From: Candidatus Rokubacteria bacterium GWA2_73_35
GTDB lineage: Bacteria > Methylomirabilota > Methylomirabilia > Rokubacteriales > CSP1-6
NCBI GenBank assembly: GCA_001790205.1
Contig: MGBU01000233.1
Span: forward strand, 1-37,688
Direction: 5' to 3'
Length of the DNA stretch: 37,688 nucleotides
Below the pieces are notes generated by a model. The model was not told the DNA's origin, did not search any database, and saw nothing but the letters and a program-made list of their open reading frames with translations. Positions 13,138 to 37,660 of this stretch are shown here, piece after piece; the stretch's first letter is position 1; each line of letters starts with the position of its first letter. The position numbers and the translations under genes were made by a program.

Positions 13138-13177
13138 GGCACCGCACCTCCTCATCGGGGCCGCCGCTGCTCGTCTG

Positions 13178-15866: not shown

Positions 15867-15981
15867 CGCAGTTTTCCCGCACAAAAATCGATAGGTTGCG
15901 CCCCCTCGCAGGACTCCGGGGTTCGCAAGGGCACTATCCACACCAGAGCGGGCTCGATCTGCGAACCTCGTACCCACAATC
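15867..15981 (-). promoter_or_regulatory. putative CRISPR leader between the cas4 stop and the first (newest) repeat
   Basis: 115-nt non-coding stretch, locally AT-richer next to the repeat (minus strand ...TATCGATTTTTGTGCGGGAAAACTGCG-repeat). Its position next to the perfectly conserved end of the array, with degenerate repeats at the far end, supports the polarity. No promoter was mapped. Confidence 0.5.
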
Positions 15982-16602
15982 TCACCATATGTCCCCGCAG
16001 TAATTCCGAAACTCGCAGACCTCGCAGCGGCTGCGCAGGGAAGTAGGTGGCGGCAGCTCCTCGCGCTCCATCATCCGCCGCAGCTCCACAATCGCCGAGC
16101 GCACTCCGTTACGATCGGCCTCGGTGAGCGCGAGGCTGACCACGCGCTTCTCGGGCACGAGGTAGATGAACCCGTCCGGAGCCGGGCGTGCGAACGCTTC
16201 CTCGGCCAGGAGCGCATAGGCCGCAACTTGGAGTCGATGGTTCCTTCGCGGCCCGCCCTCCGTGTCCTTGAAGTCCACAGGGTAGCAGGCCTCGGGTGTC
16301 AGGATGAGCAGATCGAGCTTGCCGGAGAGTCCCAGGCGGTCGGACTGAAGCCAGAGGCCGAAGCGGCGCTCGCCCTCCCGCATCCCGTAGGCGCGGAAGC
16401 CGCGGCGCCGCTCGAGCGCCTCCACGGCGGCCTGGACGTCTTTGCCGCGCCTCATCTTGTACGTTGGCGTCGGCCGCACCGGCAGCACGTAGCGGTAGAA
16501 CGGGATGCGGGGGCAATACGCCCATTGCTTGAGGTCCGTCGCAGTCACCGTGACCGGCGCGGCCGCGACAGCCGCGCCCGCCTCCGGCCCCGTCTCACCC
16601 AT
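15982..16602 (-). CDS. cas4: CRISPR-associated exonuclease Cas4
   Basis: RecB-like nuclease with N-terminal Cys (WAYCPRIPFY), DFKD, QVAAYALL and a C-terminal CEVCEFRNYC cluster. ATG 16602 (MGETGPE...) overlaps the cas2 stop by 8 nt. The track ORF extends to 16656. Confidence 0.85.
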   Translation of the reverse strand: MGETGPEAGAAVAAAPVTVTATDLKQWAYCPRIPFYRYVLPVRPTPTYKMRRGKDVQAAVEALERRRGFRAYGMREGERRFGLWLQSDRLGLSGKLDLLILTPEACYPVDFKDTEGGPRRNHRLQVAAYALLAEEAFARPAPDGFIYLVPEKRVVSLALTEADRNGVRSAIVELRRMMEREELPPPTSLRSRCEVCEFRNYCGDIW

Positions 16603-16924
16603 CGGCGCGTTCCTCCGCCTTCGGCTCGTTGACGAACTCGCGCTTGGCCGCGACATCCTTCTCGCACACGGGGAGCAACAGGATCTTCCCCACGTCTTCG
16701 CCGAGCGTGTCGGCCAGCCGGGCCGTCAGCTCGCCCCGCCGGCTCGCGTCGAGCGCGCCGCAGAAAGCGCTGTACTGGATGCGCTCGAGCCCGTAGTCCT
16801 TGCAGGCGTTGGCCACTCGGCCGCGCACGCGGTCGTCCTGGATGTCGTAGACCACGAAGGTCAGGAGCTGCTGGCCCCGCAAGGCCCGCTCACCACTTGA
16901 AGGCGAAGCAGCGGTACGGCTCAC
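16595..16924 (-). CDS. cas2: CRISPR-associated endoribonuclease Cas2
   Basis: LLTFVVYDIQDDRVRGRVANACKDYGLERIQYSAFCG...ILLLPVC. The true start may be the TTG a few nt after the cas1 stop rather than ATG 16924. Confidence 0.85.
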   Translation of the reverse strand: MSRTAASPSSGERALRGQQLLTFVVYDIQDDRVRGRVANACKDYGLERIQYSAFCGALDASRRGELTARLADTLGEDVGKILLLPVCEKDVAAKREFVNEPKAEERADG

Positions 16925-18062
16925 CGCCGCGCAACGAACTCGCCAGATTTCGCGCCTGGATCTGGACGACCGATTTCACCCGGTGCCGGCGTCCACGGAA
17001 GCCAACTTCGCCCTCCAGCCGTTCCAGCACGGCGCCGGCCACCACGCGCCGGCTCTCGTCCGTCAGCAGCCCCTCGCGCGTCTCGATCGTCACGCCTCGG
17101 GTCAGGGCCGCGATCACCGCGCGGTCCACGACGGGCTGGCGGAACTCCTCGATGAGGTCGAGCACCAGCGAGGGCTTGCCGGGACGGTCCACGTGCAGGA
17201 AGCCGGCGAAGGGCTCGAGGCCGGCGTTCATCAGGGCGCCCCACACCTGCGTGTAGAGGATGCCGTAGCCGTAGTTCAGGGCCGAGTTCACCGGATCGGG
17301 CGCCCCGCGGTGCTCGCGCGACTCGAAGGGCGCGTGGCCCTCCAGCAGCGTCCGCACGCCCGCCCAGTACTGGCGCCCCGCGCCGCCCTCGATCGAGAGC
17401 AGCGCCGGGCGCGCGTCGTCGATACGCTCGCCGGTCACGCCGTCCACTTCGCGACGGCGCGTGGCGATCCCGCGGACGGCCGCGTCGAGCCGCTCGAACG
17501 CAGCCGGATCGGCCGTCTTGAGGTACTTGCCGAAGTACTTCAGGAGCGCGGCCTGGTTGCCGAGCTTGCCGCGCACGATCGCCCTGGCCAGCTCGAGGCC
17601 CCGCGCGTCGCCGTAAGCGGCCATCTGCTCCCGCCGCGTCAGCACGGTCGCGGTCAGCATCGGCGACGAGAGCATCGCGAACGGGCGCCCCCCCGGCGTG
17701 AGGAACGACAGGTGGATGCCTCGCTCGCAGCACTCCTCGATGAGATCCGTGGAGATGGAGACGCCCTTGGCCGCGACGACGATCTCGCTCACCTGGAAGA
17801 GCGGCAGCTCCACCTGCTCCGGCTTCGTCCGCGGCGCCGCGCCGCCGTTCGCCGCCTTTGGCCGGCGCAGCGGGACCTGAGGCGTCTTCACGCCATCGGA
17901 CGTCAGCACGCCGAGTGGGGGGCGCGCCGGCAGATCCAGCGCCAGGTGGAGCTGCGGTCCGCCCTCGAGCAGCTCCAGCCGCGGCCGCGGTCCACGGACG
18001 ACCAGGCGCTCGCTCGTCTTGCCCAGCATCACGCCGTGGTCGCTGACAACGACACTGTTCAT
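16890..18062 (-). CDS. cas1: CRISPR-associated endonuclease Cas1 (390 aa, with an extra Pro/Ala-rich segment in the N-terminal domain)
   Basis: GVSISTDLIEECCERGIHLSF, AIVRGKLGNQAALLKY, EGGAGRQYW, DPVNSALNYGYGILY, HVDRPGKPSLVLDLIEEFR. GGAG precedes ATG 18062. Confidence 0.95.
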   Translation of the reverse strand: MNSVVVSDHGVMLGKTSERLVVRGPRPRLELLEGGPQLHLALDLPARPPLGVLTSDGVKTPQVPLRRPKAANGGAAPRTKPEQVELPLFQVSEIVVAAKGVSISTDLIEECCERGIHLSFLTPGGRPFAMLSSPMLTATVLTRREQMAAYGDARGLELARAIVRGKLGNQAALLKYFGKYLKTADPAAFERLDAAVRGIATRRREVDGVTGERIDDARPALLSIEGGAGRQYWAGVRTLLEGHAPFESREHRGAPDPVNSALNYGYGILYTQVWGALMNAGLEPFAGFLHVDRPGKPSLVLDLIEEFRQPVVDRAVIAALTRGVTIETREGLLTDESRRVVAGAVLERLEGEVGFRGRRHRVKSVVQIQARNLASSLRGGEPYRCFAFKW

Positions 18063-18493
18063 TCTCCTGGCTCCCGTGCTGCGCCGAGCAGCCGACGATA
18101 CAGATCGAGAAGACGATCCGCGATTCCCAAGGCCTTCCGCGCATCCTCCTCCCCGAAGAGTTCTGACGCCGGGATCCCTCGTTCCTCGTCGCCGTAGAAC
18201 GCGGGCGCCCGGTCGTCGGCCAGGTCGTCCAGACTCTCCCTGAGCTCATCGAGGGCGTGTTGCCACTCGCCGGGGAAACGGTCGGATGAAACGGCCCATC
18301 ACGCCATGCACGTCATGGCGCTTGGGCGGATCGACGCCCACGAACCGTAACGCCCCTTGAGAACCAGCTCCACCACGTCCTGGCTTTCCCGCACGACATC
18401 GGCGTGTACGCCAGCGCCCCAAAGCGTCTCCAGCATCAATCGCCGCGCCTCCGCCCGCCTGAGGTAGTCACGCGCGACGCGATCGGACGTCAC
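18059..18493 (-). pseudogene. HEPN-domain gene with a disrupted reading frame (in-frame TGA at 18301-18299); cognate of the upstream MNT
   Basis: GTG 18493 forms a GTGA overlap with the MNT stop. Frame A reads ...ARDYLRRAEARRL...VVELVLKG, then non-HEPN residues and TGA. An alternative frame between about 18352 and 18276 reads ALRFVGVDPPKRHDVHGVMGRFIRPFP, which is HEPN-like (G-x-PPK-x-HD). Frame A resumes with GEWQHALDEL...RAPAFYGDEERGIPASELFGEEDARKALGIADRLLDLYRRLL and ends in a TGA (18061-18059) overlapping the cas1 ATG. The switch points coincide with G4/C4 runs (18353-18356 and 18272-18275). Confidence 0.6.
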
Positions 18494-18978
18494 AGCGACA
18501 CCACGTCCCCGGGCTTCCAGTCGGGCTTCAGGTCCCAGTATTCGTAGCCGTCCTCGTCGACGTACCGGCGCGCCCCGAGCTCCGCAAGGCGTCGGCCGAG
18601 CCGCACGAGAATCGCAGCAAAGAAACCTCCCACGTCGTGCAGGATCAGGTGGCCCGACAGCATGCCCAGGTAGTATGATTTGACTTCCTGAGCCTCCTCC
18701 GGCGTCAGGAGAATAAGCGCCACCGTCTCGGCAAACTCTTCGGAAACTTCACGCGCCACGGCTCGGAGGCCCCCGTAGCGTGCGAAGCGCCTCTTCGGGA
18801 GCCCGCGGACGATGACGAGCACGTCAAGATCGCTCTCCGGCCGCGCTTGCCCGCGGACCCGAGAGCCGAAGGCGACCACGCTGACGAGGTCGTCGCCGAA
18901 GCGCACCTTCAGCCGCTCGACGTAGCGGTCGAGGCCAGCGCGCAGCGCGTCAGCCAGCATCATGCGGTCCGCGCTCAT
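18490..18978 (-). CDS. minimal nucleotidyltransferase (MNT) domain protein
   Basis: VVAFGSRVRGQARPESDLDVLVIV is the GS-x9-D-x-D NTase motif. 162 aa, directly followed by the HEPN gene. Confidence 0.85.
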   Translation of the reverse strand: MSADRMMLADALRAGLDRYVERLKVRFGDDLVSVVAFGSRVRGQARPESDLDVLVIVRGLPKRRFARYGGLRAVAREVSEEFAETVALILLTPEEAQEVKSYYLGMLSGHLILHDVGGFFAAILVRLGRRLAELGARRYVDEDGYEYWDLKPDWKPGDVVSL

Positions 18979-19281
18979 GCAAATCCTTCTCGAAATCTCG
19001 CAGTGGCACTGAAATCCTCCCCGCGCTCGCCCGTCTCCTCGCCAAGAACGAGGGCGCGGGCAACGGCGCCCTCGTCGAGACGGCCGACCTCGACGACGCG
19101 CTCCGCTGGTCCTCCCGGCAACCGGAGAGTCCCGCGCTCCACTTCTTCCGACCCATGCCGGACGCCAGGTCGATCTGGTCCTTCATGCCCCGGACCGCCT
19201 CCTGGCCATCGAGGTCTCCGTCGCTCCCTCAGCTACGGTCGTCCTCGGACCCGCGCTGGTCATGCAAGTATTCCTTGAAAT

Positions 19282-19300
19282 TTTGCAGCATCGCTGCAAA
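19282..19300. promoter_or_regulatory. perfect 8-bp inverted repeat TTTGCAGC-ATC-GCTGCAAA upstream of the second DUF4143 ATPase
   Basis: Read directly. It lies in a locally AT-rich stretch (19262-19305), 10 nt before the proposed GTG start at 19311. Confidence 0.4.
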
Positions 19301-19310
19301 TACTACCGGC

Positions 19311-20591
19311 GTGGGGTTCCATCCCCGCCGCCTGCTCGCGCTGCTCCGGGCCCGCCTGGCCGCCCGGCCGATCACGGTCCTGACGGGCGCGCGCCAGACG
19401 GGCAAGACGACGATCGTCCGCGACCTCCTGCCCGCAGGCGGTGACCTGCCGAGCGTCTATTTCTCGCTCGACGATCCCGACGAGCGCCTGCGCCTCGCGG
19501 CCGATCCCGTGCGGCGGCTCGATCACGGCGCGCGCATCGTGGTGCTCGACGAGATCCAGAAGCAGCCCGCCCTGCTCGACGCGGTGAAGCTGCTCGCCGA
19601 CCGCGGCGAAGGGCGGCGCTTCCTGCTGCTCGGCTCGGCGCAGGTGCTGCTGCTCCGGCAGGTCCGCGAGACGCTCGCCGGCCGCGCCGCGTTGCTGGAG
19701 CTGTGGCCGCTCGGCCTGGTCGAGCGCGTCGAAGGCCCGGAGGCTCCGCTCTCCGGCCTCGATCAGATCTGGCGCGAGGGCGAGGCCGCGGTGCGCCGCA
19801 TGGCCGAATCGCCGCCCAGCGCGGACGACGCCCGCCTCTGGCGCGGGCGCGCCGAGGAGCACTTCCTCTGGGGCGGCTACCCGGCGCTGGAGCCGATGCC
19901 GCCCGAGGAGCGCCGCGCCTGGCTGCGCGATTTCCGGCGCACGTACCTCGAGCGCGACCTGGCCGACCTCGGCCGCGTGGCCGATCTCGACCAGTTCGCC
20001 CTCGCGCAGAACCTCCTGGCCGCCCGCACCGGCCAGCTCCTCTCGCACTCGGAGGTAGCGCGCGAGCTGGGCGTCGCCGTCAACACCGTCAAGCGCTACG
20101 TACGCTTCCTGGAGATCTCCTACCAGCTCTTCCTCCTGCGACCGCTCCAGCCGACCGTGACCGCGCGGCTGGTCAAGAGCCCCAAGCTCTACTGGACCGA
20201 CCCGGCGCTGGCGAGCCTGCTCGGCGAGCGCGCCGGCGCCGCCGACGGCGCGCTCTTCGAGACCGCCGTGCTCGACGAGCTGCTCCGCTGGTCGTCCTGG
20301 CAGCCGGAGCCGCCGGCACTGCACTTTTTCCGCACGCACGCCGGCCGCGAGGTGGACTTCATCCTCCACGCTCCCGACCGCGTCGTCGCCCTCGAGGCCA
20401 AGTCGAGCGAGCGCGCCCACCGCACCGACGCGCGCCCGCTGACCGAGGTGCTGGGCGCCCTCACCCTGCGCGGTGTCGCGCGCGACGCCTGGCGGGTGGG
20501 GTTGGTGGTCACGCGCGGCCGCGAGGTGGAGCCGCTCGCGCCGGGCGTGTGGGCCGTGCCCGACTGGCGGCTGTTCGGGCCGGGGGGATGA
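19311..20591 (+). CDS. AAA+ ATPase with DUF4143-type C-terminal domain (paralogue of 7430..8599)
   Basis: Walker A GARQTGKTTI and Walker B VVLDEIQ, then YLERDL...KLYWTDPAL. I chose GTG 19311 (VGFHPRRLLALLRARL...) by alignment with the N-terminus of the 7430 paralogue. The track ORF starts at 19155. Confidence 0.85.
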   Translation: MGFHPRRLLALLRARLAARPITVLTGARQTGKTTIVRDLLPAGGDLPSVYFSLDDPDERLRLAADPVRRLDHGARIVVLDEIQKQPALLDAVKLLADRGEGRRFLLLGSAQVLLLRQVRETLAGRAALLELWPLGLVERVEGPEAPLSGLDQIWREGEAAVRRMAESPPSADDARLWRGRAEEHFLWGGYPALEPMPPEERRAWLRDFRRTYLERDLADLGRVADLDQFALAQNLLAARTGQLLSHSEVARELGVAVNTVKRYVRFLEISYQLFLLRPLQPTVTARLVKSPKLYWTDPALASLLGERAGAADGALFETAVLDELLRWSSWQPEPPALHFFRTHAGREVDFILHAPDRVVALEAKSSERAHRTDARPLTEVLGALTLRGVARDAWRVGLVVTRGREVEPLAPGVWAVPDWRLFGPGG

Positions 20592-20620
20592 GAGCCTCGA
20601 GCATCTTCGCCTTCGGGCCA

Positions 20621-20854
20621 TCACTTGCCGAGCGACTCGATCAGCCTGGCCCGTATACCCAAGATGGTCAGTCCCACAACCTCCTTCTTCTTCTCGTCGT
20701 ACCGGACCACCACCCCCTGACTGAGGTCGACTCCAGCAGCCTTCCGCGGCTTCCCCAGGCTCAGGTAGAGCACGTCGGCTTCCTCGTCGTAATACCAGTC
20801 GAGCCGCTCTTTCTTCTCAAGGATCTTCACCGTGTCGACAGGCGTTGCCTCCAT
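20621..20854 (-). CDS. DUF2283-family small protein (antitoxin-like)
   Basis: Internal ATG 20854 of track ORF 20621..21031. Reads MEATPVDTVKILEKKERLDWYYDEEADVLYLSLGKPR...VVVRYDEKKKEVVGLTILG, with the YDxEADxLY signature. No DUF4258-type partner is recognisable next to it. Confidence 0.7.
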   Translation of the reverse strand: MEATPVDTVKILEKKERLDWYYDEEADVLYLSLGKPRKAAGVDLSQGVVVRYDEKKKEVVGLTILGIRARLIESLGK

Positions 20855-20925
20855 CTCGCCAGTCGCCTGGCGAAGTATGCCGTGGCGACGAATCCGTCGT
20901 CGGCGCCTGCTTCCTTGTTCCTCGA

Positions 20926-23175
20926 TCATAAGCGGAGGCCGAGTTCGCTCGAATACGGGGCATCGATTACCCAGATGCCATCCGCCCGATCGTGTCTCAG
21001 GTCGTATTGCCGGTATCGCAGGGATCGCCACCGTACCGGGATGAGCAAGGCATTTGCCTCTAGCCAGAGTCCATTCGCCATCAGATCGCGGTATTCAGCT
21101 TCGAGACAGGCCGGGAGAACGTCGACCGACGAATCAGCAGATTCGATCACGCTCTCCACCCAGTCTTCGTGGGCACCAGCGAGCGCGCGATCCTCGAATT
21201 CCGTGAGTCCTGAGTGATTCAGCCCCGCTAGAAACTCTGTCTCCTCCTCACCGGTGTAGCCACCAGCGTAGACGCGGTCCGCACGTTGGACGAGATCCGA
21301 CTCACTGACCAGTCCTGCCGCACCGGCTTCGAGCAGTTCGACGACGGATCGGCGAACGAGATCCTGTGGGTAGAGCGGATGTGCAGACGATTGCGCCTCG
21401 AGGAGTTCGACCGTCGCTGGAGACACCTGGGACCCGAAGCGGTTGACGCGCCCCATGCGCTGCACCAGAGCATCGATGGGCGCGGGCTCGGTAATGAGGC
21501 GCTCGAAATCGATATCCAGGCTGACCTCGACGACTTGCGTGGCGACGAGCAGGCTGGGTAACGGACCGCCACCGGTGAGTGCCCGCTCTTTACAGACACG
21601 GTCGCGGCGGTTGAAGCGCCCATGCAGGAGCATAGGGCTCGCCTCACCGGACAGCTGACCCCGTAACCGCTCGTACGCATCCTGTGCAGTGCGGACGTGG
21701 TTGCAGACAAGAAGGGTGGCCGCACTCCGACGCAGCTCGGAGGCAGAAATCTCCGCCACCGTCCCAGGACGGTGGACTACCCGATGACGGGCGCGAAGCA
21801 GCACGTCGCGGTCCGTCGCGTCACTCTCCAAGGGTACGACGGTAGGCCCGATCCGTGAGAGCGCCTGACGAATGAGCCGTTCAAGAAACGCGGGGAGCGT
21901 GGCCGACACGAACGCGCAGCGCCCGCCCCACCGCTCAACCAGCTGCGTTGTAGCGAGCACGAGTCCGGCGATCCGCGGCTCGTAGGCGTGCACCTCGTCG
22001 AAAATGAAGAGCGCCCCGCGGAACTCTCCGAGCGCCAGTTCCCAGCCTTTGCCGCGGAGCGCCTGGCGCAGGATCTGGTGGGGGGTACATACCCGAAACG
22101 TGAAACCCATCTCTCGCGCGAGTGTCGCAACCTGCTTCGCGACGGCCTGCTGACCCAGCCGGGCGGACAGATCGTCCGGTCGCTCGCGCAGCCCGTAGAT
22201 CGACTCTGCCGCGCGACCATGCAGGATGCCAGCGGGGAAATGCCGCCCGCAGTCACTCGGGCAGTCTGGTCGGTGTTCGGCAAGCCTGCGCCGCATGGCA
22301 TCTATGCTTGCGGTGTGCGGCAGGACGTAATACACGCGACCCGCCCGTGCTTGATTAGCTTGTGCCCACATCAGCGCGGCCTCGGTCTTCCCGCTTCCGG
22401 TGGGCGCGCGGAGCAGCAGGTGGCCGCGCACCTCTGCGGCACGCTGTTGAAAACCACGAGACTGGACCGGAGCGATGTCAATGCGCTTGAGGTCAACCGG
22501 GGGCGGCGGGTCGACGTGCGCGCTCGCCATGTGATCGCACGTCACGAGCAGCCCACGCAGCAACGCGGCGCGCAAGCGCTCCTCGGCCCGGAAGCTTCGG
22601 CGCTGCGAAGCGGCATGCGTCCCGCGCACGAGCCACCTGAGGTCAAGGCGAAGCGCAACGGGAGTCAATGTGGCAGGGAGACCGAGCTCAGGAGCAATTG
22701 CACGCAGATCCGCCCAGCACCGTCGCCAAGCACGGTCGTTCTCTTGCAGTTCCCTGGTCATGCGGTCAAAGGCCCCTGACGACTCCCCTTCCAGTGGTAG
22801 CTGTTCCCATGGTAGTTGCCCCGCCTCGACTTCTATCCCGTTACCGGGAAGCGTCTTGTGGTGTGTCAGCACTGCGAGCAGAACCTCAGGGGCCAAGCTG
22901 GGAACGGAGGATGCGAGCGAGGCCGACAGGATCTCGTGGCGTAGACCATCCCACCCAGGCCGCTGGCCTCGTAGCACCTCCTGGAAGCCGAGCGCGGCCT
23001 TGCCCACGTCATGGAACAGGATCGCGAGGCGGAGATCGGCGGAGAGCCGTTGCTTCTGGTCCTCGTCGAACGGCAGCCCTTCGATTACTCGGTCGGCCAC
23101 GTGCAGGCCTCGCCGCACGTGGTCGACGAGCGGTTCGCCCGTACTCTTCGCCAGCACAGAAACCTCGGGGGTCAT
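20926..23175 (-). CDS. cas3: CRISPR-associated helicase/nuclease Cas3 (HD + DExH helicase)
   Basis: HD domain (LAILFHDVGKAALGF, LTHHK). Helicase motif I APTGSGKTEAAL and motif II FIFDEVHAYE. ATG 23175 sits just after GGAGG and shares ATGA with the cas5 stop. The upstream part of the 837-aa track ORF is read-through. Confidence 0.9.
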   Translation of the reverse strand: MTPEVSVLAKSTGEPLVDHVRRGLHVADRVIEGLPFDEDQKQRLSADLRLAILFHDVGKAALGFQEVLRGQRPGWDGLRHEILSASLASSVPSLAPEVLLAVLTHHKTLPGNGIEVEAGQLPWEQLPLEGESSGAFDRMTRELQENDRAWRRCWADLRAIAPELGLPATLTPVALRLDLRWLVRGTHAASQRRSFRAEERLRAALLRGLLVTCDHMASAHVDPPPPVDLKRIDIAPVQSRGFQQRAAEVRGHLLLRAPTGSGKTEAALMWAQANQARAGRVYYVLPHTASIDAMRRRLAEHRPDCPSDCGRHFPAGILHGRAAESIYGLRERPDDLSARLGQQAVAKQVATLAREMGFTFRVCTPHQILRQALRGKGWELALGEFRGALFIFDEVHAYEPRIAGLVLATTQLVERWGGRCAFVSATLPAFLERLIRQALSRIGPTVVPLESDATDRDVLLRARHRVVHRPGTVAEISASELRRSAATLLVCNHVRTAQDAYERLRGQLSGEASPMLLHGRFNRRDRVCKERALTGGGPLPSLLVATQVVEVSLDIDFERLITEPAPIDALVQRMGRVNRFGSQVSPATVELLEAQSSAHPLYPQDLVRRSVVELLEAGAAGLVSESDLVQRADRVYAGGYTGEEETEFLAGLNHSGLTEFEDRALAGAHEDWVESVIESADSSVDVLPACLEAEYRDLMANGLWLEANALLIPVRWRSLRYRQYDLRHDRADGIWVIDAPYSSELGLRL

Positions 23176-23960
23176 ACGCCTCCGGCTGCCTGCGACCAGG
23201 CGTGAAGGTAGACCGCATCGTCCGAGCCCTTGGCGTTCGAGGGATGAAAGAGATCGTTGCCCTGGACGTGGTGCAGATCCTCTGCGCGCTCCTGCGCCGA
23301 GAGGTCCGCGTCCGAGGGATGAAAGAGATCGTTGCCCTGGACGTCGAAGCGCATGCCGTCTGCCGTCGGCGGCAGGCTGATGAAGCGCCCAACCGCTCCA
23401 ACGCGACGAGGCTGACCGAAGGGCCCTGCCTCGAACCACTCGGCCAGGGTGAGCGGCAGCCCGTGGCTCTGAACGGCGTCACGAGCAACGAGAGTCGCGC
23501 CGATGGCACCGCGCTGCACCGGGACCAGCGACACAGGGCGCACGAAGACGACCCAGGCGACGTCCTCCGAGCGCCCAAACCTCGGCGTGGCCACCGGAGA
23601 CTCGAACACCGCACTCATCGCGGCCGGAACCACGTACAGATCGAGACTCGGCGCGACATGAAACTGCCTGCGTAGCAGGCCAGGACCTTTGCGATGCTCC
23701 CTGAGCCGCCCACGCTCCAGCGTCCAGCGTCGCGTCCTTTGGAGATCCATCGCTTGGCCGCGATAACGGTACTCGAAGCCCACTCGCACCTCGTGCGGCG
23801 ACACAACCCGTCCCGCGCACGCACTGATCATCCCGAGGACGTTCGTGTATGCGGGGACGGGAAGACTCGCTTGCGTCCCGCTGATGAGCAGAGGCTGCCG
23901 AAACGAGGCCGTCAGGCCCTCGAGCCGGACATGGACGCCGTGCAGCGTCAGCGGAGGCAT
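23172..23960 (-). CDS. cas5: CRISPR-associated protein Cas5 (type I-B/Cas5t-like)
   Basis: MPPLTLHGVHVRLEGLTASFRQPLLISGTQASLPVPAYTNVLGMISACAG is a typical Cas5 N-terminus. ATG 23960 overlaps the cas7 stop by 13 nt. The track ORF begins at TTG 23996. The C-terminal tail contains the duplicated peptide VQGNDLFHPS (next feature). Confidence 0.75.
   Translation of the reverse strand: MPPLTLHGVHVRLEGLTASFRQPLLISGTQASLPVPAYTNVLGMISACAGRVVSPHEVRVGFEYRYRGQAMDLQRTRRWTLERGRLREHRKGPGLLRRQFHVAPSLDLYVVPAAMSAVFESPVATPRFGRSEDVAWVVFVRPVSLVPVQRGAIGATLVARDAVQSHGLPLTLAEWFEAGPFGQPRRVGAVGRFISLPPTADGMRFDVQGNDLFHPSDADLSAQERAEDLHHVQGNDLFHPSNAKGSDDAVYLHAWSQAAGGV
23233..23344. repeat. two 37-nt direct repeats (36/37 identical) separated by a unique 38-nt segment, inside the cas5 3' end
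   Basis: Copy A at 23233-23269 is GCGTTCGAGGGATGAAAGAGATCGTTGCCCTGGACGT. Copy B at 23308-23344 is GCGTCCGAGGGATGAAAGAGATCGTTGCCCTGGACGT. Identity stops abruptly on both sides. The 75-nt period has the same repeat/spacer geometry as the main array. Confidence 0.6.
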
Positions 23961-25306
23961 TCGGTCAGCCACGAGGCCGCCTGAAGAGGGGTGCAAACCA
24001 CGAACGACGCTCGAGCAAGCTTCGCGCGGAGCTCGTCGGTCGAGACATCGAGGCCCCCGGGGGACAACTGCCGGACCTCATGCTGGTTGTCGAGGTAACC
24101 CTCGCGGATCCCGACGAACACGGGCGTCGCGATCCTGCTCGCGTAGTCGCCGACGACCTCCGTGAGCCGCTGGGTGTTCAGCCGGGGACCGTCTTCGCTG
24201 TCGGTGAACAGACGGTTGAAGATGGGATTCCCGCACGACAGCCCGGCCAGGATCAGGGCCTTGGGCGCCACGTCGGTTGCGAAGGCCGCCTGCTTGGCGC
24301 CGCCGCGCAACACCGCGAGCGCTTGGATCAGCCGTCGGCTCCGTTCTCCGGCCACTGAGCGATCCTTGAGGCGGTAGATCCTACCGAGCGGGCCGCGGTC
24401 CTCGGCAAGCTCGATCTTCCCCTCCTTCATCCATGTGTCTACCCGATGCGGGTCGAGTTCCTTCCGGTCCCCGAGGTTCCAGAAGACGCCGACACGCGCG
24501 CGGTCTAGACAGAAGATGCCCTCGAGATGGCTGTTGAAGAACCGGGTGCTGTATGGCAACGGTGATTGCGGATTCGGCATCGGCGAGCGGTCCGCGATCG
24601 AGTGTTCCTTGACGAACCCGCGCGCAATTGCCAGAGCGTCCGTGACGGGCTTGCCCCTGATCTGTTTCTTGAAGGCTTCTTTCTTCGCCCTCGGAACATC
24701 GGCGATGTCGGCGGTGTCTATCGCTCGCTTCCACTCTTCAAGCTCGAGCGCGGCCGGATCATGAGACTGCACGTGGACGAAGCCATCGTCCCGCCCCTGC
24801 CAACCGTCGGACCGAATGGACGCAAGGACTGAGGCGGCAAGCGGAGAAGCCCGCATGACGGCCGCGATCGTGTCGGTGCCCGCGTCGGGCACGACATCCT
24901 CGTCAGTGGCATCGTCATCGCCGACGGCCGCTTCGCCAGCGCTGAGACGCCTACCCTGGCCTTCGGCAGCGCGCATGTAGCCGAAGAGGTCGTCCTCGGC
25001 GTAGTCGATGGGGTTCACCTGTCCCGCTACCTTGCTGGTGTTGCCTTGAGCGTTCCACGCGATCGCACGAATCTCGCTCGTGGGCCAGCCGGTCTCTTCG
25101 ATCAGTGTGTTCCGCAGCCACCGCCGCCACGCCTGTGCGGAAACGTAGGGCACTGAGCGCTGTCCTTCCCTGAAGCTCTTATGAACCGTCGTCGTCCGGT
25201 CTTCCCCTGACCCGAGGCCGGCCCCATTGAGGAACGCGGCGCGGGCTTCGATGAGAAGTGTGCCTGCGACATGTTGCAGTGAGGGTCGTCCAGGTGCCTG
25301 GTTCAT
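23948..25306 (-). CDS. cas7: CRISPR-associated protein Cas7 (Cst2/DevR-like), unusually long (452 aa)
   Basis: AAFLNGAG, SVPYVSAQAWRRWLRNTL, EDDLFGYM, LAVLRGGAKQAAF. ATG 25306 shares ATGA with the cas8b stop. Confidence 0.8.
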   Translation of the reverse strand: MNQAPGRPSLQHVAGTLLIEARAAFLNGAGLGSGEDRTTTVHKSFREGQRSVPYVSAQAWRRWLRNTLIEETGWPTSEIRAIAWNAQGNTSKVAGQVNPIDYAEDDLFGYMRAAEGQGRRLSAGEAAVGDDDATDEDVVPDAGTDTIAAVMRASPLAASVLASIRSDGWQGRDDGFVHVQSHDPAALELEEWKRAIDTADIADVPRAKKEAFKKQIRGKPVTDALAIARGFVKEHSIADRSPMPNPQSPLPYSTRFFNSHLEGIFCLDRARVGVFWNLGDRKELDPHRVDTWMKEGKIELAEDRGPLGRIYRLKDRSVAGERSRRLIQALAVLRGGAKQAAFATDVAPKALILAGLSCGNPIFNRLFTDSEDGPRLNTQRLTEVVGDYASRIATPVFVGIREGYLDNQHEVRQLSPGGLDVSTDELRAKLARASFVVCTPLQAASWLTECLR

Positions 25307-27291
25307 GCCGGCTCCTCCACTGGAGTTGGCTGCACGGCGATGAGCCGTCGTGCGGCGTTGCATACTGCGAGTCCGAGCTGGAACGCCCGCCGCGTCCCGT
25401 CAGGCTCTTCGAGCCAGTCGCGCCAAGTGCGCGAAGAGAGCGGGGCTCGTCGTTGGGGCGAACTGAGACGCTCGCCCAGCCACTGTGTGCCCAGGCGCCG
25501 CGCCAGCCACGGCCGGACGATGTCTCGTTCGAGCCGGTGCGCTCCCCGCACCGTGACGTACTCGACGAGATAATTCTGGAGTGCGGCCGCGACGACGCCA
25601 GGAAGGGCCGAATCGGACATTGGCGTCGCGGCCGGCTCGGGCCACGGCGGTCGTAGGACGCGCCGAAGCGCGTCCTCACTGAGCCGGGCCGCCAGGTGTA
25701 GCCGGGTCTGGAACACCCACTCTCGCGCGGCGAGTCGCCCATGCCCATCGAGCGCCAATGCGCTCCAGGCGACGAAGGTGAATCCCTCCTCGCGCCACGC
25801 GCAGGCCAGGAACTGGTCCCGCAGCCATCCGTCGTCCGTCCGTTCGGCACGCGCGACGAGATCGCGGACGAACTGCGCGCCGCGAACCGTGAGCAGTCGA
25901 TCGAGGACGCGGTCGGCGATGAAGGACACCGTGTCGGTATCAGCAAGTGCCGAAGGCGGCTCGCCATGTTTGCGCCCGTTCCTGGCGGTCTGGTGAACGT
26001 AGTACCCCAGCACTTTCCACCCATCTCCGGCCACAGCGACGCCTGGCCCGTCGCGCACCGGAAACAGAGACCGATAGTCGGCGAGCGAAAACCGCCCTTC
26101 GCCGGCCATCGCGACCATCGCCAGGCGAACGCGAGCCCGAAGCTCGGAGCGCCGGAACGCCTCGGGCTTGCGGAGGCTGTCGAGATCGTCCTTGCGACGC
26201 ACGGCGCCAGTCAGTGCGGTCGCGATCGCGTGAGCCACTTCCAGCGCGCAAGTCGTACGCCCCAGGACACGCGTCTGGTAGAGTTCGAACAATGGGACGG
26301 ATGCACCGGGGTGTTTTGCGCGCGGGTACAGCGGATCATAGTCACGACCTTCCTCGAGGCACCTCAGCATCCCCGGCGTCCATTCAGTGTCCTTTCGCGG
26401 CTCGCTGGCCATGAGGCGTTCGATTTCCGGGCCGAGCCCGGCGTGCACAACGTCGCGAAGGAACAGAAGCGCCCGACTGGGAAGCTCTTCGAGCGCGACG
26501 TCCGCCCGATCGCCGGCATTCGTGAAGTACCAGGCGAAGACGCGTGTCTTGGAATCCACGACGCCGAGCCGCTGCTGGAGTCGCAGCGCGTCAAGGACGC
26601 TGAGGAGCCGCCGTGCGAGCGCCCGCTTCCCCTCCTTAGTGCCGACCGTCGCCACGTCTCCTGCCTGTTCTCGGACCCGTACGTGGTCGTACAGATCCCG
26701 AACGAAGATGTCTGCGAAGTCCGGCGGCGCAGACTGCAAAACCGTCAGGCGTCCGTCGACCAGCAGGAGAGCGGATGGGAGCAGCCGGACCGCGAGCAGG
26801 CAGCGCGCGCAGGTGTGCGGACTGCCGCTAGCCGCCGGCCATAAGTTGGCCTCGGTGGCGGCGCCCGCAAGTGGGAGCCAATCACGCCCGAACGAGGGCG
26901 TCCTCCCGGCCGAATCTTTCAGTTGACGGGCATCCAAGCTGCGCGGGGCGCCGCACACCTCGCAAGGAACATTGTTGGCTTCCCGGCCCATCGCGTCGCG
27001 GATCCTGACGAGGAGGGACGCATAGTTCTGGACGTGAGCCTCGCCTGGCTTCTGTCCCTTCAATTTCGGATTGTGCAGTGGCGTGTTGCTCCCGAAGACC
27101 GGGATGAAGGCCTTGAGCGGCTGCTGCCGGCGAGCCAGCGCAATGCCGTCGCCGACTATGTTCTTCAGGTGCTCATCCGTGAGCACCTCCACGCTGTCGA
27201 GGTGAGCCATAGCGGCCGCAATCGACAGGCCCCAATCGACGAAGGGATTGCCAGTCAGGACTCCGAAGGCCTTCGGAGGACGATCACCCAT
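25303..27291 (-). CDS. cas8b: type I-B large subunit, Cas8b (Cst1-like)
   Basis: 662 aa. The N-terminus FGVLTGNPFVDWGLSIAA and the Cys pairs CEVCG...CARC recall Cst1/Cas8b1. It occupies the canonical slot directly upstream of cas7-cas5-cas3. ATG 27291 overlaps the upstream ORF by 8 nt. The family call is by recollection only. Confidence 0.7.
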   Translation of the reverse strand: MGDRPPKAFGVLTGNPFVDWGLSIAAAMAHLDSVEVLTDEHLKNIVGDGIALARRQQPLKAFIPVFGSNTPLHNPKLKGQKPGEAHVQNYASLLVRIRDAMGREANNVPCEVCGAPRSLDARQLKDSAGRTPSFGRDWLPLAGAATEANLWPAASGSPHTCARCLLAVRLLPSALLLVDGRLTVLQSAPPDFADIFVRDLYDHVRVREQAGDVATVGTKEGKRALARRLLSVLDALRLQQRLGVVDSKTRVFAWYFTNAGDRADVALEELPSRALLFLRDVVHAGLGPEIERLMASEPRKDTEWTPGMLRCLEEGRDYDPLYPRAKHPGASVPLFELYQTRVLGRTTCALEVAHAIATALTGAVRRKDDLDSLRKPEAFRRSELRARVRLAMVAMAGEGRFSLADYRSLFPVRDGPGVAVAGDGWKVLGYYVHQTARNGRKHGEPPSALADTDTVSFIADRVLDRLLTVRGAQFVRDLVARAERTDDGWLRDQFLACAWREEGFTFVAWSALALDGHGRLAAREWVFQTRLHLAARLSEDALRRVLRPPWPEPAATPMSDSALPGVVAAALQNYLVEYVTVRGAHRLERDIVRPWLARRLGTQWLGERLSSPQRRAPLSSRTWRDWLEEPDGTRRAFQLGLAVCNAARRLIAVQPTPVEEPA

Positions 27292-28021
27292 TGGCAGTTC
27301 CTTCCTCCAGCGGCTGCGTCGTCGGCTCGATCCCCTGCTCGGCCAGCCACTCGCGCGCCGCCGCGTGCAGCCGCTCGTCCCGGAACGCGAACCAGCGCTC
27401 GCGCTCGGCGGGGAAATCGAGCAGGACGTTCTTGAACCGCCGGAAGGCGCCGCGGCCGTCGAGGGCGACCTCCAGTCGGTCGCGCAGCCGCGCATCGCCC
27501 ACCGTCTCGGCGAATTCCGCCATCCACCCGTACTCGATCCGCGAACCCAGCGGCTCGACGGGGATCAGGTGGCCTGCGGCCAGCGCGTCGTCGAGATCCT
27601 CCTCCGACGGCCAGTCGTCGTCTTCGCCGAGGCGGTCAATGGGGACCATCTGGACCTCGCCCGTCCGCACGTCGAGATAGAAGCTCCACTCGGCGGGATT
27701 CGAGGTCAGCGCCATCTCGAGATCGTCCCAGTTCACCGGGACCCGCCTGGGCAAGCCCGCGGGTCGAGGTTCGTCCCGTCCCAGCCACGCCAGAATCCTC
27801 TCCCGCGCGGTCGCCTCGAACTCGTCGCCGTAGAAGCGCAGGAACAGGGCGCGGCGCACCGCGGCCGGCGAGGCGTGCGGGTCCCGCGCCAGCACCGAGG
27901 CGCGCACCAGGGCCCGCGCCGTCGCGCCCATCGAGCAGCCCATCTTCAGGCGTTCCTCGGGCGAGCGCGCGAGGAGCATCGCCCGGTAGCGCTGCATGAC
28001 CTCGGGCGGGGTGTCAGTCAC
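27284..28021 (-). CDS. two-domain protein: N-terminal helical module fused to a UPF0158-like C-terminal domain
   Basis: GTG 28021 overlaps the NTase stop by 8 nt. The N-terminal part is MTDTPPEVMQRYRAMLLARSPEERLKMG...LFLRFYGDEF. The C-terminal part is WSFYLDVRTGEV...IEYGWMAEFAETVGD...LDGRGAFRRFKNVL...WFAFRDERL...WL, matching my memory of the UPF0158 family. Confidence 0.7.
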   Translation of the reverse strand: MTDTPPEVMQRYRAMLLARSPEERLKMGCSMGATARALVRASVLARDPHASPAAVRRALFLRFYGDEFEATARERILAWLGRDEPRPAGLPRRVPVNWDDLEMALTSNPAEWSFYLDVRTGEVQMVPIDRLGEDDDWPSEEDLDDALAAGHLIPVEPLGSRIEYGWMAEFAETVGDARLRDRLEVALDGRGAFRRFKNVLLDFPAERERWFAFRDERLHAAAREWLAEQGIEPTTQPLEEGTANG

Positions 28022-28583
28022 CGAGCGCCTCCCGGTACAGGGCGCCGAGCCCGAGGCGCTCGGTCCAGTGCGCCAGGTACTGCCTGTCCAGGTCGGGCAC
28101 CGACCTCAGGAGGTTCCTGACGTCGGCGAGCTGGACCTCCGAGCGGCTCTCCCGCATCCAGTCGAGCTTGGAGATGATCAGGTCCTCGGGCGCGACGAGG
28201 GCGATCCCGTGGCCCTCGATGGAGCCGCGCCGCTGCCGCGCGAACTCCGTACTGCGGTACTCGCTGTCCTTGCGGACGATGCAGTCCACCTTGATCACGT
28301 AGGCCTGGTGGATCAGGTTGAACGCGCTCCGGCCGGCGATGGCGGCGCCCACCGCGTCCCGGTCGAGATAGAAGTCGTCCTCGAAGAGGGCGCAGAACCG
28401 CTCGGTGTCGCCGGGGGACAGCTCGACCACGAGGTCGATGTCGCGCGTCATGCGTGGCACGGCGTAGTAGTTGGCCGCGAACGATCCGGTCACCATGTAG
28501 GCGATCCCGGCAGCCTCCAGGCGCCCGGCCATCATCGCGAGAACCTCCAGCTCTTCGGTCACCCGCGTGCCCCAGCGTCCCAC
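28014..28583 (-). CDS. nucleotidyltransferase-fold protein (DUF6036-like)
   Basis: IAYMVTGSFAANYYAVPRMTRDIDLVVEL is a G[SG]-x(9-12)-D-x-D pol-beta-type NTase motif. 189 aa from GTG 28583; the start could be a few codons downstream. Confidence 0.65.
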   Translation of the reverse strand: MGRWGTRVTEELEVLAMMAGRLEAAGIAYMVTGSFAANYYAVPRMTRDIDLVVELSPGDTERFCALFEDDFYLDRDAVGAAIAGRSAFNLIHQAYVIKVDCIVRKDSEYRSTEFARQRRGSIEGHGIALVAPEDLIISKLDWMRESRSEVQLADVRNLLRSVPDLDRQYLAHWTERLGLGALYREALGD

Positions 28584-28620
28584 CGACCTCTGACAGGGAA
28601 GGTCACAGCAGGCGCCATCC

Positions 28621-30012
28621 TCACCCCGGCCGCGGGAGTCCCAGCTCGCCCCACATCCAGCCGAAGTCGTAGGCGGGGCGGCCCTCCAGGCGCTCGCGGG
28701 CCGAGAGGTTCTCCATGTCCTTGAGGAGCGCGATCAGCTTGGGGCGCGCGGACTTGAGGCCCGCGGCCTCGCGCGGCGTGCGGCCGCCGAGGGCGGGCAG
28801 CGGCTCGTCAAGCCAGCCGCGGTAGTGGCGCTCGTAGAAGGCCTGCACGATCTCGGCGGCAACTTCAGGCGGCACCTCGTCCACGGGCCGGGCGGGCCGG
28901 CGGTCGCGGGCGCCCGGCCGGGCGCGCCGGCGGTCGAGCGCCCGCGCGACGCTCTCGGAACTCGTGGCCCGGTACGCGACCGCGGGGCCGGCCGCCGCCT
29001 CGAGCAGCGCGCGCCCGCGCTCGGCGCGCTGGCGCGACATGGTCTCCAGCGCGACGCGCCCCTTCTCGAGCACGAAGGTGCCGAAGCCGCGGCGAAAGCC
29101 GGCCTCGTCGGCTTTCTCGGCGAGCCAGGCGTAGCTGCCGTCGTCCTGGCGCTCCAGCTCGGGGTGATTCGCGAGCGCGGCCTCCAGCGCCGCGCGGTCG
29201 CGCACGTCGAAGACGGCGCGGCACAGCACCACCTCATCCCCTTCGGCGGTCACCGAGGTCGGCAGCGGGCGCCGGGCGACCAGCTCGAGCCAGAGGTCGT
29301 GGAAGACCATGCCGATGTTCTTGAAGAAGGTCGGCTCGTCGCGGCGGGGCAGCTTGCCGCGCAGCGAGCGGCTGAGCCGTCGCAGGAGGCGGAGGATCAG
29401 CTCCTTCGCGCTGGCCGGGTAAAGGTAAGGCGAGCCGTCGAGGATCGGCTCGCCGTCGGGCCCGAGGACGACGCGCGCGGCGAGCACGTCCCACTGGACG
29501 AGCTGGCGCGTGGCGAGACGCTCCCGCACCCGGACGCGCTTCTTGGCCCAAAGGTCGAGGAGGTCGAGCCCCTCGTCGAGCCGCACGGCCTGGACCTCGT
29601 AGGGCCGGAGGTGCGAGAGGCGCATCCGCTCGAGGTAGCGCCGCTCGCCCGAGCGGAGGCCCCTGCCCTCGCGCGCGAGAAATCTCTCGACGATGGTCCC
29701 GCCCCCGTGGAGCGGGCAGTCGAAGGCGAACCACTCGTGGAAGCCGATCCGGCTCTGCTCGAAGTCCATGGCCTCGCGCGCCTCGGCCTCTGTCAGCCTG
29801 GCGAGGCGCCGGCCCCAGAACGTCAGCTCGGCGGCGGCGCGGTCGCCGTCCAGCTCGGCGCGCCGCGAGAACCGCATCAGGCGCTGGAGCGCGCTGTCCC
29901 GCTCCGCCGCCGTCCACGCGCCCGGCGCGGGCGCGTCCTTCCCCAGGCAGCACCGCTTGTACTTCTTGCCGCTGCCGCAGGGGCACGGGTCGTTCCGGCC
30001 GACGGCGCTCAT
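28621..30012 (-). CDS. SEC-C metal-binding-motif protein (463 aa) of unknown function
   Basis: The N-terminal NDPCPCGSGKKYKRCC is the SEC-C zinc motif. The C-terminal LGGRTPREAAGLKSARPKLIALLKDMEN resembles DUF2384/Xre-antitoxin-type tails. ATG 30012 shares ATGA with the cas6 stop. Confidence 0.8.
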   Translation of the reverse strand: MSAVGRNDPCPCGSGKKYKRCCLGKDAPAPGAWTAAERDSALQRLMRFSRRAELDGDRAAAELTFWGRRLARLTEAEAREAMDFEQSRIGFHEWFAFDCPLHGGGTIVERFLAREGRGLRSGERRYLERMRLSHLRPYEVQAVRLDEGLDLLDLWAKKRVRVRERLATRQLVQWDVLAARVVLGPDGEPILDGSPYLYPASAKELILRLLRRLSRSLRGKLPRRDEPTFFKNIGMVFHDLWLELVARRPLPTSVTAEGDEVVLCRAVFDVRDRAALEAALANHPELERQDDGSYAWLAEKADEAGFRRGFGTFVLEKGRVALETMSRQRAERGRALLEAAAGPAVAYRATSSESVARALDRRRARPGARDRRPARPVDEVPPEVAAEIVQAFYERHYRGWLDEPLPALGGRTPREAAGLKSARPKLIALLKDMENLSARERLEGRPAYDFGWMWGELGLPRPG

Positions 30013-30971
30013 GCGCCGCGTCCGTCCCCGGCGTCGCCAGGCTCAATCCGGTAGCCGCCGAGACCGAAGGTGGTCGCGCTGCCGACGTGGGTCCATTGGC
30101 CGAACACGAGGTACGGCCAGAACGGCTTCAGGTCGCCCCGATACGTGACCGCGCCGGCCAAACCCTCCCACTCCATGCGCCGGTCCTGGCGGCCGGAGTA
30201 GCGCACCCAGCGCGTCCAGCGCGTCTCGTCCCGCTCGATCACGACGGACTGCGCCCGCTCGATGAAGTCGCGGAAGTCCAGGTCGAGCGGCCCCGGCCCG
30301 TGAAACCGCGCGAGCGACGACAGGCGCCCCAGCAAGCGGCGGAAGACGACGTGGAAGTCGGGCCGGCGCGCGAAGCCGCCGTCGTGCTTGAGCCGGGTCT
30401 GGGTCACGAAGCGGACGCGGACGATGTCGCCCGGGCACGGCACGTCGAGACAGTCCGCGAGGCTCAGGCTCAGATCGTGAGGCCGGACCAGGTTGTCGTT
30501 CCGATCGTACACGGTCGCGGCGAGATCCGTCAGGGGATGGACCGCCTCGATTCGCCGCAGCGCCACCGCGCGGCGGCCCCGGCCGATCCGGTCCACCTCG
30601 CGGAGCGTCACCACGAAGTGCGGGAGGAGCTCGCGCGCCCGGCCGACGAGCGTGAGATCGAACGCCACCCGGCTCCCCGGCGGATAGTCCGGCGCGCCCG
30701 CGGGCGGCGGCGCGATCACAAAGGGACGGGGGATCTCGTCATGGGTCCGGAGCGCCTCGGCGTCCGGCGGCGGCGCCGTCTCGAAGACCAAGTGATACGG
30801 GCAGGACGCGGGCGCGGGGCACGGCTCGCCGTCGCGGGCGAGACAGCAGAGGCGGCGGAACGCCCGGCCGAACGCGCCGCGCAGGGTGGAGCCGAGGTAG
30901 GCGGGAAGCTCGAGCGGCTCGAGAGCCTCGAGCGTGACGCGGTAACGGGCGAGCGCGAGCGAGGCGCTCAT
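30009..30971 (-). CDS. cas6: CRISPR pre-crRNA endoribonuclease Cas6 (RAMP)
   Basis: LPAYLGSTLRGAFGRAF near the N-terminus and a C-terminal glycine-rich loop HVGSATTFGLGGYRI. ATG 30971 shares ATGA with the WYL regulator stop. Confidence 0.85.
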   Translation of the reverse strand: MSASLALARYRVTLEALEPLELPAYLGSTLRGAFGRAFRRLCCLARDGEPCPAPASCPYHLVFETAPPPDAEALRTHDEIPRPFVIAPPPAGAPDYPPGSRVAFDLTLVGRARELLPHFVVTLREVDRIGRGRRAVALRRIEAVHPLTDLAATVYDRNDNLVRPHDLSLSLADCLDVPCPGDIVRVRFVTQTRLKHDGGFARRPDFHVVFRRLLGRLSSLARFHGPGPLDLDFRDFIERAQSVVIERDETRWTRWVRYSGRQDRRMEWEGLAGAVTYRGDLKPFWPYLVFGQWTHVGSATTFGLGGYRIEPGDAGDGRGA

Positions 30972-37159: not shown

Positions 37160-37660
37160 GCGCCGCGCGCCCCGCCGCCCGGCGCCGCTCGAGCAGCGTC
37201 TCGACGCGCTCCTCGCCGGTCAGCACCGCGCGCAGCGCCTCCAGCAGGCGCGTCCAGCTCGCGTGCGACGTCACGGTCTCGCCGAGCGGGTCGTTGACCT
37301 GGAACGTGTCGATCGCGATCCCGTCGGCGCGCGTGTGGATCTGCGCCGAGATGATGTTGACCCCGTGGGCCGCGAGCGTCCCCGCGATGAGCGAGAAGAG
37401 GCCGGGCACGTCGCGGGTGACGACCACCAGGTCGGACGAGCCGAGGTCGGGGTGGTGGAACAGCCGGGTCACCACCGACGCGCCCTCGAGCCGCCGCAGC
37501 ATCCGGAGGTGCTCGGCCATCCGCTGCACCCCCGTGGACGCGAGGTAGCGGTCGGTCACCATCGCGAGGTGCGCCTTCACCGCCTGCACCTCCACGTCCT
37601 CCCCCGCCGCCGCGTGCAGCCGGCCCGCGAGCTGCGTCCGGTTCGGCCGCGCCACGCGCC
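36665..37660. repeat. perfect tandem duplication, period 496 bp (36665-37160 = 37161-37656) with 4-bp junction microhomology CGCC
   Basis: Both junctions were compared base by base and internal stretches were spot-checked. Translations of both strands are identical in the two copies (for example track ORF 37294..37548 equals part of 36480..37052). Confidence 0.9.

Follow-up and report, generated by a model that had tools for sequence, protein, structure and literature searches.

During spacer integration into CRISPR arrays, Cas1–Cas2 makes staggered attacks at the two ends of a repeat, the prespacer is ligated and gap filling duplicates the repeat, which amounts to an unusually long target-site duplication; those of transposons measure ~12 bp or less (PMC4872114). 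In E. coli, Cas1–Cas2 can also integrate off target in the genome and found new 'neo-CRISPR' arrays, as the work of Nivala, Shipman and Church (Nat Microbiol 2018) is related by papers that cite it (PMC7054753, PMC6698737, PMC11788318, PMC9456107, bioRxiv 10.1101/148544). In these sources, off-target integration is documented mainly in E. coli overexpressing Cas1–Cas2, and for only two other species is there evidence, described as circumstantial (bioRxiv 10.1101/148544). Here, we describe a unit of comparable geometry inside the 3′ end of cas5, a gene of a CRISPR-Cas locus that is type I-B-like and lies on the minus strand of contig MGBU01000233.1 of the uncultivated, high-GC bacterium Candidatus Rokubacteria bacterium GWA2_73_35 (the window, 37,688 nt, is the whole stretch analysed). 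The unit spans 112 nt (23233–23344) in a repeat–spacer–repeat arrangement, and it is in our judgement reasonably probable that it is a natural off-target (ectopic) spacer integration into cas5, a one-spacer 'neo-CRISPR' kept because it was in frame.

Two 37-nt direct repeats (23233–23269 and 23308–23344), identical at 36 of 37 positions and with a start-to-start period of 75 nt, enclose a unique 38-nt segment (23270–23307). All three parts lie on the minus strand. In the reading direction of cas5, the upstream copy 1 (23308–23344; ACGTCCAGGGCAACGATCTCTTTCATCCCTCGGACGC) retains the ancestral TCGGACGC of the orthologues. It is followed by the inserted spacer-like segment (23270–23307; GGACCTCTCGGCGCAGGAGCGCGCAGAGGATCTGCACC) and then by copy 2 (23233–23269), which is identical to copy 1 over the first 32 nt of the coding strand and differs from it by one G>A change (TCGAACGC, Asp>Asn). 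Immediately past copy 2 the ancestral cas5 sequence restarts. The bases flanking the 37-mers mismatch at either end (G/C and C/G), which fixes the duplication at exactly 37 nt and the insert at exactly 38 nt; a repeat search stretches the pair to 48 nt at 88% identity, solely through one chance CTCGG match. Two such matches did not arise in any of 100 dinucleotide shuffles of the window.

Both lengths agree with the resident array. The duplication is as long as the array repeat (37 nt), and the insert falls within the range of the 36 array spacers (34–39 nt), of which one is 34 nt, nine are 35 nt, seven 36 nt, eight 37 nt, six 38 nt and five 39 nt long. The GC content of the insert is 0.71, compared with a spacer mean of 0.68, and the insert has no terminal inverted repeats. 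No further such unit was found in the window or in 19 related loci. A first-pass annotation of this DNA had described the two repeats around a unique segment, the abrupt ends of their identity, the same geometry as the main array and a repeat sequence different from that of the array, and we reproduced each of these points, coordinates and identity included; the neo-repeats match the canonical repeat at 7–9 of 37 positions. Its view that the event took place at the level of nucleic acid and with CRISPR geometry likewise stands, the 38-mer being unlike the downstream sequence and the orthologues carrying a single copy.

The site without the insertion is preserved in relatives. A Cas5 search over ~5.8 billion proteins returned 103 relatives, to which six more members of the three closest clusters were added (n = 109); five of the aligned sequences form the window's own 90% cluster, and 104 are others. 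Among these 104, the MRFD–YLHAWS segment measures 29 aa in 101, 30 or 32 aa in two and missing in one truncated sequence, and neither a two-copy nor an intermediate form occurs. It reaches 54 aa solely in the window's near-identical cluster. The window protein has 266 aa and its closest relatives 241 aa (80–81% identity in the search output), a difference of exactly 25 aa. In an alignment of 18 sequences, every orthologue shows a single ...RF(D/E)VxGxxLFHPSDAEGxDDAVYLHxW motif, with an insertion of 25 columns in the window. Aligning the orthologues had been named as a check in the first-pass annotation, and its outcome is a single copy in all of them outside the window cluster.

The corresponding DNA was compared in the two nearest orthologues examined at this level (L003 and L004). 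In both, one 37-mer is followed directly by the sequence that stands after copy 2 in the window, and the cas5 genes of the closest relatives contain nothing resembling the 38-mer. Without its 75 nt the window gene is 726 nt long, as are both orthologues, and it aligns with them gaplessly at 87.2% and 86.2% nucleotide identity. Both copies of the 37-mer carry the AACGAT bases at positions where the orthologues differ. These shared lineage-specific bases, together with a single mismatch between the copies over 37 positions, place the insertion after the split from L003 and L004. On these comparisons, the unit is a lineage-specific 75-nt insertion and not a feature of the Cas5 family.

Twelve further contigs contain a 112-nt unit identical to that of the window. 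They come from independent groundwater assemblies of the Joint Genome Institute (JGI) and the European Nucleotide Archive (ENA) that represent different samples, and every examined contig of this wild groundwater population carries the unit. The carriers form one near-clonal population whose readable arrays have the same leader-end spacers. Arrays from other samples share spacers 1–20, counted from the leader end, with the window array; that of L010 is without spacers 21–24 and that of L013 without spacers 12–15 and 19–23, which are internal deletions or rearrangements. No new leader-end spacers were found in the readable arrays of the other carrier contigs. In one contig with the same cas5 insertion (L019, 1712–5542), cas7 is shortened to 274 aa and cas3 is broken into open reading frames (ORFs) of 108 aa and 549 aa; the contig may represent a locus in decay within the same population, or a misassembly.

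The genes for an integrase are present in the same operon as the unit. Intact cas1 (16890–18062, minus strand; TIGR00287, 239 bits; PF01867), cas2 (16595–16924, minus strand; TIGR01573; PF09827) and cas4 (15982–16656, minus strand) lie ~5 kb downstream of it in the same operon direction, and cas1 encodes the integrase that we propose as the maker of the insertion. According to the proposed mechanism, the Cas1–Cas2(–Cas4) adaptation complex of the locus would have made its attacks on the two cas5 strands at a distance of 37 bp, its normal stagger across a CRISPR repeat, and a 38-bp prespacer would have been joined between the two nicks. Gap filling would then have duplicated the 37-bp target, with a 37–38–37 arrangement, a one-spacer 'neo-CRISPR', as the outcome. 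The allele would have survived and become fixed in the groundwater population as an in-frame insertion that leaves one near-intact conserved C-terminal motif, which would be a case of tolerance rather than selection. Relatives with a single target copy and no insert fit this course of events. Moreover, the 38-mer is unrelated to its flanks, to the rest of the window and to the related loci, as would be expected of a captured spacer.

The unit resembles the E. coli 'neo-CRISPR' events, as these are described in the citing papers, in its spacer-sized insert, in the duplication of non-CRISPR sequence over the length of a repeat, in a new 'repeat' unrelated to the canonical one and in the presence of an adaptation module in the genome. 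It differs in that those events took place under Cas1–Cas2 overexpression, whereas this one is natural and fixed, and its host is a high-GC, uncultivated bacterium whose system is type I-B-like. It is also placed in frame within a coding gene of its own CRISPR-Cas system, where it adds 25 aa to a protein; it holds one spacer, and neither a protospacer nor a leader-like determinant was identified for it. In the type I-B system of Haloarcula hispanica, mid-repeat anchor motifs set the duplication (PMC4872114). The unit would share with acquisition in that system cuts staggered by the length of one repeat, duplication of the DNA between them and insertion of the spacer without PAM (protospacer adjacent motif) bases, and its target, like a repeat, has inverted G/C tracts (GGG...CCC) 7–8 bp from each cut. 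Unlike the haloarchaeal target it has no leader and lies in coding DNA. Its G and C tracts are reversed relative to the canonical CCCC...GGGG repeat, and no match to the canonical anchor motifs could be demonstrated. Ectopic acquisition in CRISPR1 and CRISPR3 of Streptococcus thermophilus (PMC7999890) is similar in that integration occurs away from the leader-proximal repeat; there, however, the target is a genuine internal CRISPR repeat, and the target in cas5 is not a CRISPR repeat.

If the unit was made by the integrase, it adds a natural case to a phenomenon that is known but has seldom been documented. The footprint would be clean, exact to the base pair and accompanied by a recorded empty site, and it would lie inside a gene of the CRISPR system itself. 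It would indicate that CRISPR adaptation has a real mutational cost in nature, that on non-CRISPR DNA the integrase still works with a stagger of repeat length and that such integrations can turn into in-frame protein insertions. It would also supply a rule for genome-wide searches, a repeat-length duplication combined with a spacer-length insert, by which the frequency of these events could be gauged.

The target itself has inverted-repeat arms at both ends (CGTCCAGGG...CCCTCGGACG), and in single-stranded form its DNA has a folding energy of −6.8 kcal/mol (z = −2.8 relative to shuffles). The terminal placement of these arms is in the top 1.6–2.5% of cas-operon 37-mers and is the only unusual feature of the hairpin. 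In vitro, non-CRISPR palindromes beside integration sites are reported to attract E. coli Cas1–Cas2 (PMC5389526), and attraction by a palindrome offers post hoc support for integration at this target. Features shared with the leader–repeat junction or with the repeat have been reported for off-target sites in vitro (PMC6698737).

Several points weigh against an off-target integration. The event is single, so that the agreement of two lengths forms the heart of the argument. Besides its low in-register identity (7–9 of 37 positions), the 37-mer has no significant local alignment with the canonical repeat (p = 0.17–0.57). The five bases upstream of the target match the leader end at four of five positions (CTTCG vs CTGCG), a weak resemblance to a leader–repeat junction and a hint only, and 18% of real cas-operon 37-mers fold as well as the target, so that its hairpin energy is ordinary. 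Among the carrier contigs, neither ongoing adaptation nor independent recurrence was seen. Finally, no protospacer of the 38-mer was found in phages, plasmids or viral, metagenome or genome contigs. This last result carries little weight and is uninformative, because checks with genuine spacers (the whole array compared by megablast with phage records, and a 24-mer of one spacer searched in viral contigs) also matched nothing.

The searches for the source of the 38-mer gave the following. At up to three mismatches the window held no protospacer match, and ungapped comparison with the window and the related loci gave at best 25 of 38 positions, which 20% of shuffles equalled. Phage and plasmid collections returned chance matches only (E ≥ 0.4), and the exact 24-nt core of the 38-mer had no match in viral, metagenome or genome contigs. 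Patterns of 37–38 nt made degenerate at codon wobble positions likewise gave no credible match, in viral contigs for three frames and in metagenome and genome contigs for one frame each. The single metagenome match to a wobble pattern (L009, 821–857) was rejected as chance; its 25 fixed positions match and all 12 free ones differ. It lies antisense within an ORF of 387 aa, judged by its sequence to be a putative aspartate-semialdehyde dehydrogenase gene. The case illustrates that coding-like, periodic, GC-rich patterns yield chance matches despite a tiny naive expectation.

The principal rival to off-target integration is some other repair or insertion process, such as end-joining filler at a staggered double-strand break or a template switch, with lengths that match those of the CRISPR system by coincidence. 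A single event without a protospacer, at a target unlike the canonical repeat, is compatible with this, and the high-GC, coding-like composition of the 38-mer could derive from the host genome. We nevertheless regard it as unlikely, though deserving of serious attention, since it leaves to coincidence that the resident system is matched in two independent lengths, the 37 nt of the duplication and, inside the 34–39 nt range, the 38 nt of the insert; neither end joining nor template switching predicts a 37-bp duplication together with a spacer-sized insert, and no template for the 38-mer lies nearby, given the chance-level 25 of 38 noted above. The footprint of a transposable element was considered and rejected: a 37-bp duplication exceeds the limit of ~12 bp (PMC4872114), and terminal inverted repeats are absent from the insert. 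The first-pass annotation had offered another origin, an old 25-aa tandem duplication within cas5 with a homogenised first half; gene conversion would then have kept the first 37 of 75 nt identical while the other 38 nt became unrecognisable. Its in-frame period, a 5-nt CTCGG match in register and a loose likeness of AEDLH to AVYLH speak for it. That likeness proved to be out of register, however, and the 38-mer matches the 38 nt after copy 2 at 11 positions, where 10.5 are expected by chance (p = 0.49), with a 5-mer as the best local alignment (p = 0.81). Because the 38-mer is thus unrelated to the sequence after the second repeat, we reject a tandem duplication, which we would call very improbable. 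Double or intermediate forms are absent outside the window cluster, relatives at 86–87% nucleotide identity are single-copy, and the copies are 36/37 identical with shared lineage-specific bases; saturated divergence of the adjoining 38 nt is not credible because the event is young. An assembly or chimera artefact, which the metagenomic derivation of the contigs might bring to mind, can for practical purposes be dismissed: the reading frame is intact, and independent ENA and JGI assemblies carry an identical copy, found in 12 other contigs from different samples.

A further alternative concerns what the unit does now. Whatever its origin, it could serve as a regulatory or guide RNA resembling a CRISPR RNA (crRNA), either CreA/CreR-like or as a functional one-spacer array, released by processing of the cas5 mRNA or its antisense and taken up by Cascade. 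In haloarchaeal Cre elements, the repeats are degenerate derivatives of the canonical repeat; the elements are intergenic, match a promoter in part and recur in related loci. The unit shares with the CreTA/CreR systems of type I-B haloarchaea the position of a repeat–spacer–repeat-like arrangement within a type I-B cas locus; it differs from them in its unrelated repeats, its place in coding sequence, the lack of a demonstrated target and its absence from orthologous loci. Besides the geometry, an RNA function is favoured by the location inside the cas operon, by which the unit would be transcribed if the operon is expressed, by an allele that is fixed and identical in all 12 other contigs, and by an antisense GGGATGAAA stretch loosely like the canonical GGGACTGAAA. 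The similarity between these two is not significant (p = 0.17), however, and the stretch stands 19 nt away from the spacer, whereas a handle must adjoin it. A ACTGAAAC-like handle beside the spacer is absent (best 5/8, misplaced), the canonical hairpin is missing from the neo-repeats, which match the canonical repeat as poorly as stated above, and the RNA or DNA hairpin that does form covers the entire 37-mer and leaves no 8-nt handle. For a CreA/CreR-like element one would expect repeats derived from the canonical one, a handle adjacent to the spacer, conservation and a partial target. Here the unit is absent from all orthologous loci, the nearest at 86–87% nucleotide identity, so it is not a conserved regulator, and partial targets of the 38-mer in the 37.7-kb window amount to chance-level matches of 10–11 nt. 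Rfam gave no family at gathering score anywhere in the window. The suggestion in the first-pass annotation of a regulatory, crRNA-like element of the CreA/CreR type therefore found no support, and we give an RNA function very little credence; the unit probably acts neither as a CRISPR nor as a regulatory RNA. As far as the sequence evidence goes, an integration scar fits better than a selected regulatory RNA.

An off-target integration could also have been co-opted afterwards, either (a) as a Cas6-independent crRNA-like RNA within the cas5 mRNA that feeds back on the system or (b) as a 25-aa insert that alters Cascade function, for example in escape from an anti-CRISPR. We consider such co-option a long shot. 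In a broader form of the same idea, in-frame protein insertions of repeat-plus-spacer length may arise repeatedly in nature through CRISPR integrases.

The effect of the unit on the Cas5 protein can be read from the coding strand, which gives ...RFD-VQGNDLFHPSDA-DLSAQERAEDLHH-VQGNDLFHPSNA-KGSDDAVYLHAWSQAAGGV*, the 38-mer being read in frame as (A)DLSAQERAEDLH(H) with no counterpart in any orthologue. VQGNDLFHPS is encoded twice, and the cas5 stop overlaps the cas3 start as ATGA; the translation of cas5 thereby bears out what had been noticed in the first pass about the in-frame 75-nt period, the doubled peptide and the overlap with cas3. The total of 37 + 38 = 75 nt divides by three and no stop codon interrupts the frame of the insert, so that 25 residues were added to Cas5. 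The segment that they interrupt is length-invariant across the Cas5 family and contains the invariant or near-invariant residues H218, S220, D221, Y255, H257 and W259 (numbering of the window protein). Since the insertion consists of a duplication plus filler, one almost intact C-terminal motif (VQGNDLFHPSNAKGSDDAVYLHAW) is retained, and we infer that the additional 25 residues can loop out at either junction.

At the downstream junction (23226–23238, minus strand), the window carries two non-synonymous G>A changes within 7 nt relative to all close orthologues. One replaces Asp by Asn inside copy 2 and the other Glu by Lys three codons on, just past copy 2; together they strip negative charge beside the acidic insert, and the pair may represent charge compensation for that insert or errors of gap-fill repair. 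An AlphaFold2 model is unreliable at the Cas5 C-terminus (predicted local distance difference test <50 for residues 217–266). Foldseek confirmed a Cas5 fold, with Cas5 subunits of type I-A, I-E and I-B Cascade as the top matches, and a sequence search of the PDB gave spurious matches only.

The locus that contains the unit is ordered, on the minus strand, as WYL regulator, cas6, SEC-C protein, UPF0158, cas8-like gene, cas7, cas5, cas3, accessory genes, cas1, cas2, cas4, leader and array, and all the long cas reading frames listed for the window are open. The block from cas6 through SEC-C, UPF0158, cas8 and cas7 to cas5 begins with cas6 (30009–30971, minus strand; 320 aa), identified by PF10040 on the identical gene of contig L010. 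The large-subunit (cas8-like) ORF (25303–27495, minus strand) is assigned by position and has no family match. It is followed by cas7 of the Cst2/DevR type (23948–25363, minus strand), by the Cas5t/Cas5b-like cas5 (23172–23972, minus strand; 266 aa including the 25-aa insertion) and by cas3 (20926–23175, minus strand; 749 aa), which encodes an HD nuclease and a helicase and whose start overlaps the cas5 stop. The canonical array (13178–15866, minus strand) comprises 37 copies of a 37-nt repeat (minus-strand sequence GTTCGACGATGTTCCCCGATGAGGAGGGGACTGAAAC) with 36 spacers between them, and a putative leader of ~115 nt (15867–15981, minus strand) extends from cas4 to the first repeat. Because degenerate repeats lie at the 13178 end, the cas4-side end of the array was taken as leader-proximal and the array was read on the strand of the cas genes.

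The neighbouring genes vary among the related loci. A WYL-domain regulator stands upstream of cas6 in most of the fetched loci, and the SEC-C-motif and UPF0158 proteins between cas6 and the cas8-like gene (window 27284–30012) are kept in most of them (L005–L008, L010–L017); in this interval, small ORFs or a PhdYeFM/PemK toxin–antitoxin pair are frequent. The interval between cas3 and cas1 (window 18490–20900) encodes a DUF2283 protein, an opposite-strand AAA_14/DUF4143 ATPase and an MntA-like nucleotidyltransferase, and the accessory genes at this position were also examined in L010 (13119–15674) and L012 (12486–13378). Because L012, from another sample, carries an additional PIN/MazE toxin–antitoxin pair between cas3 and cas1, the interval appears as a variable hotspot inside the cas operon.

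The GC content of the window is 63–80%. Over most of its length the CRISPR-cas region (13000–28000) has 62–69%, compared with mostly 72–80% in the flanks, and this contrast suggests that the whole CRISPR-cas locus was acquired horizontally. Near the right end of the window (36652–37660), a 496-nt unit occurs twice in tandem at 99% identity among long overlapping high-GC ORFs, and the pair may reflect either a genuine recent duplication or the assembly at the contig end. Within the array, the spacer at 13726–13764 (TTAATACAGCACTTCTTACGTTGCACGATGAGAGTACTT, plus strand) is markedly AT-rich relative to the spacer mean GC of 0.68, which suggests that the system has met at least one low-GC invader.

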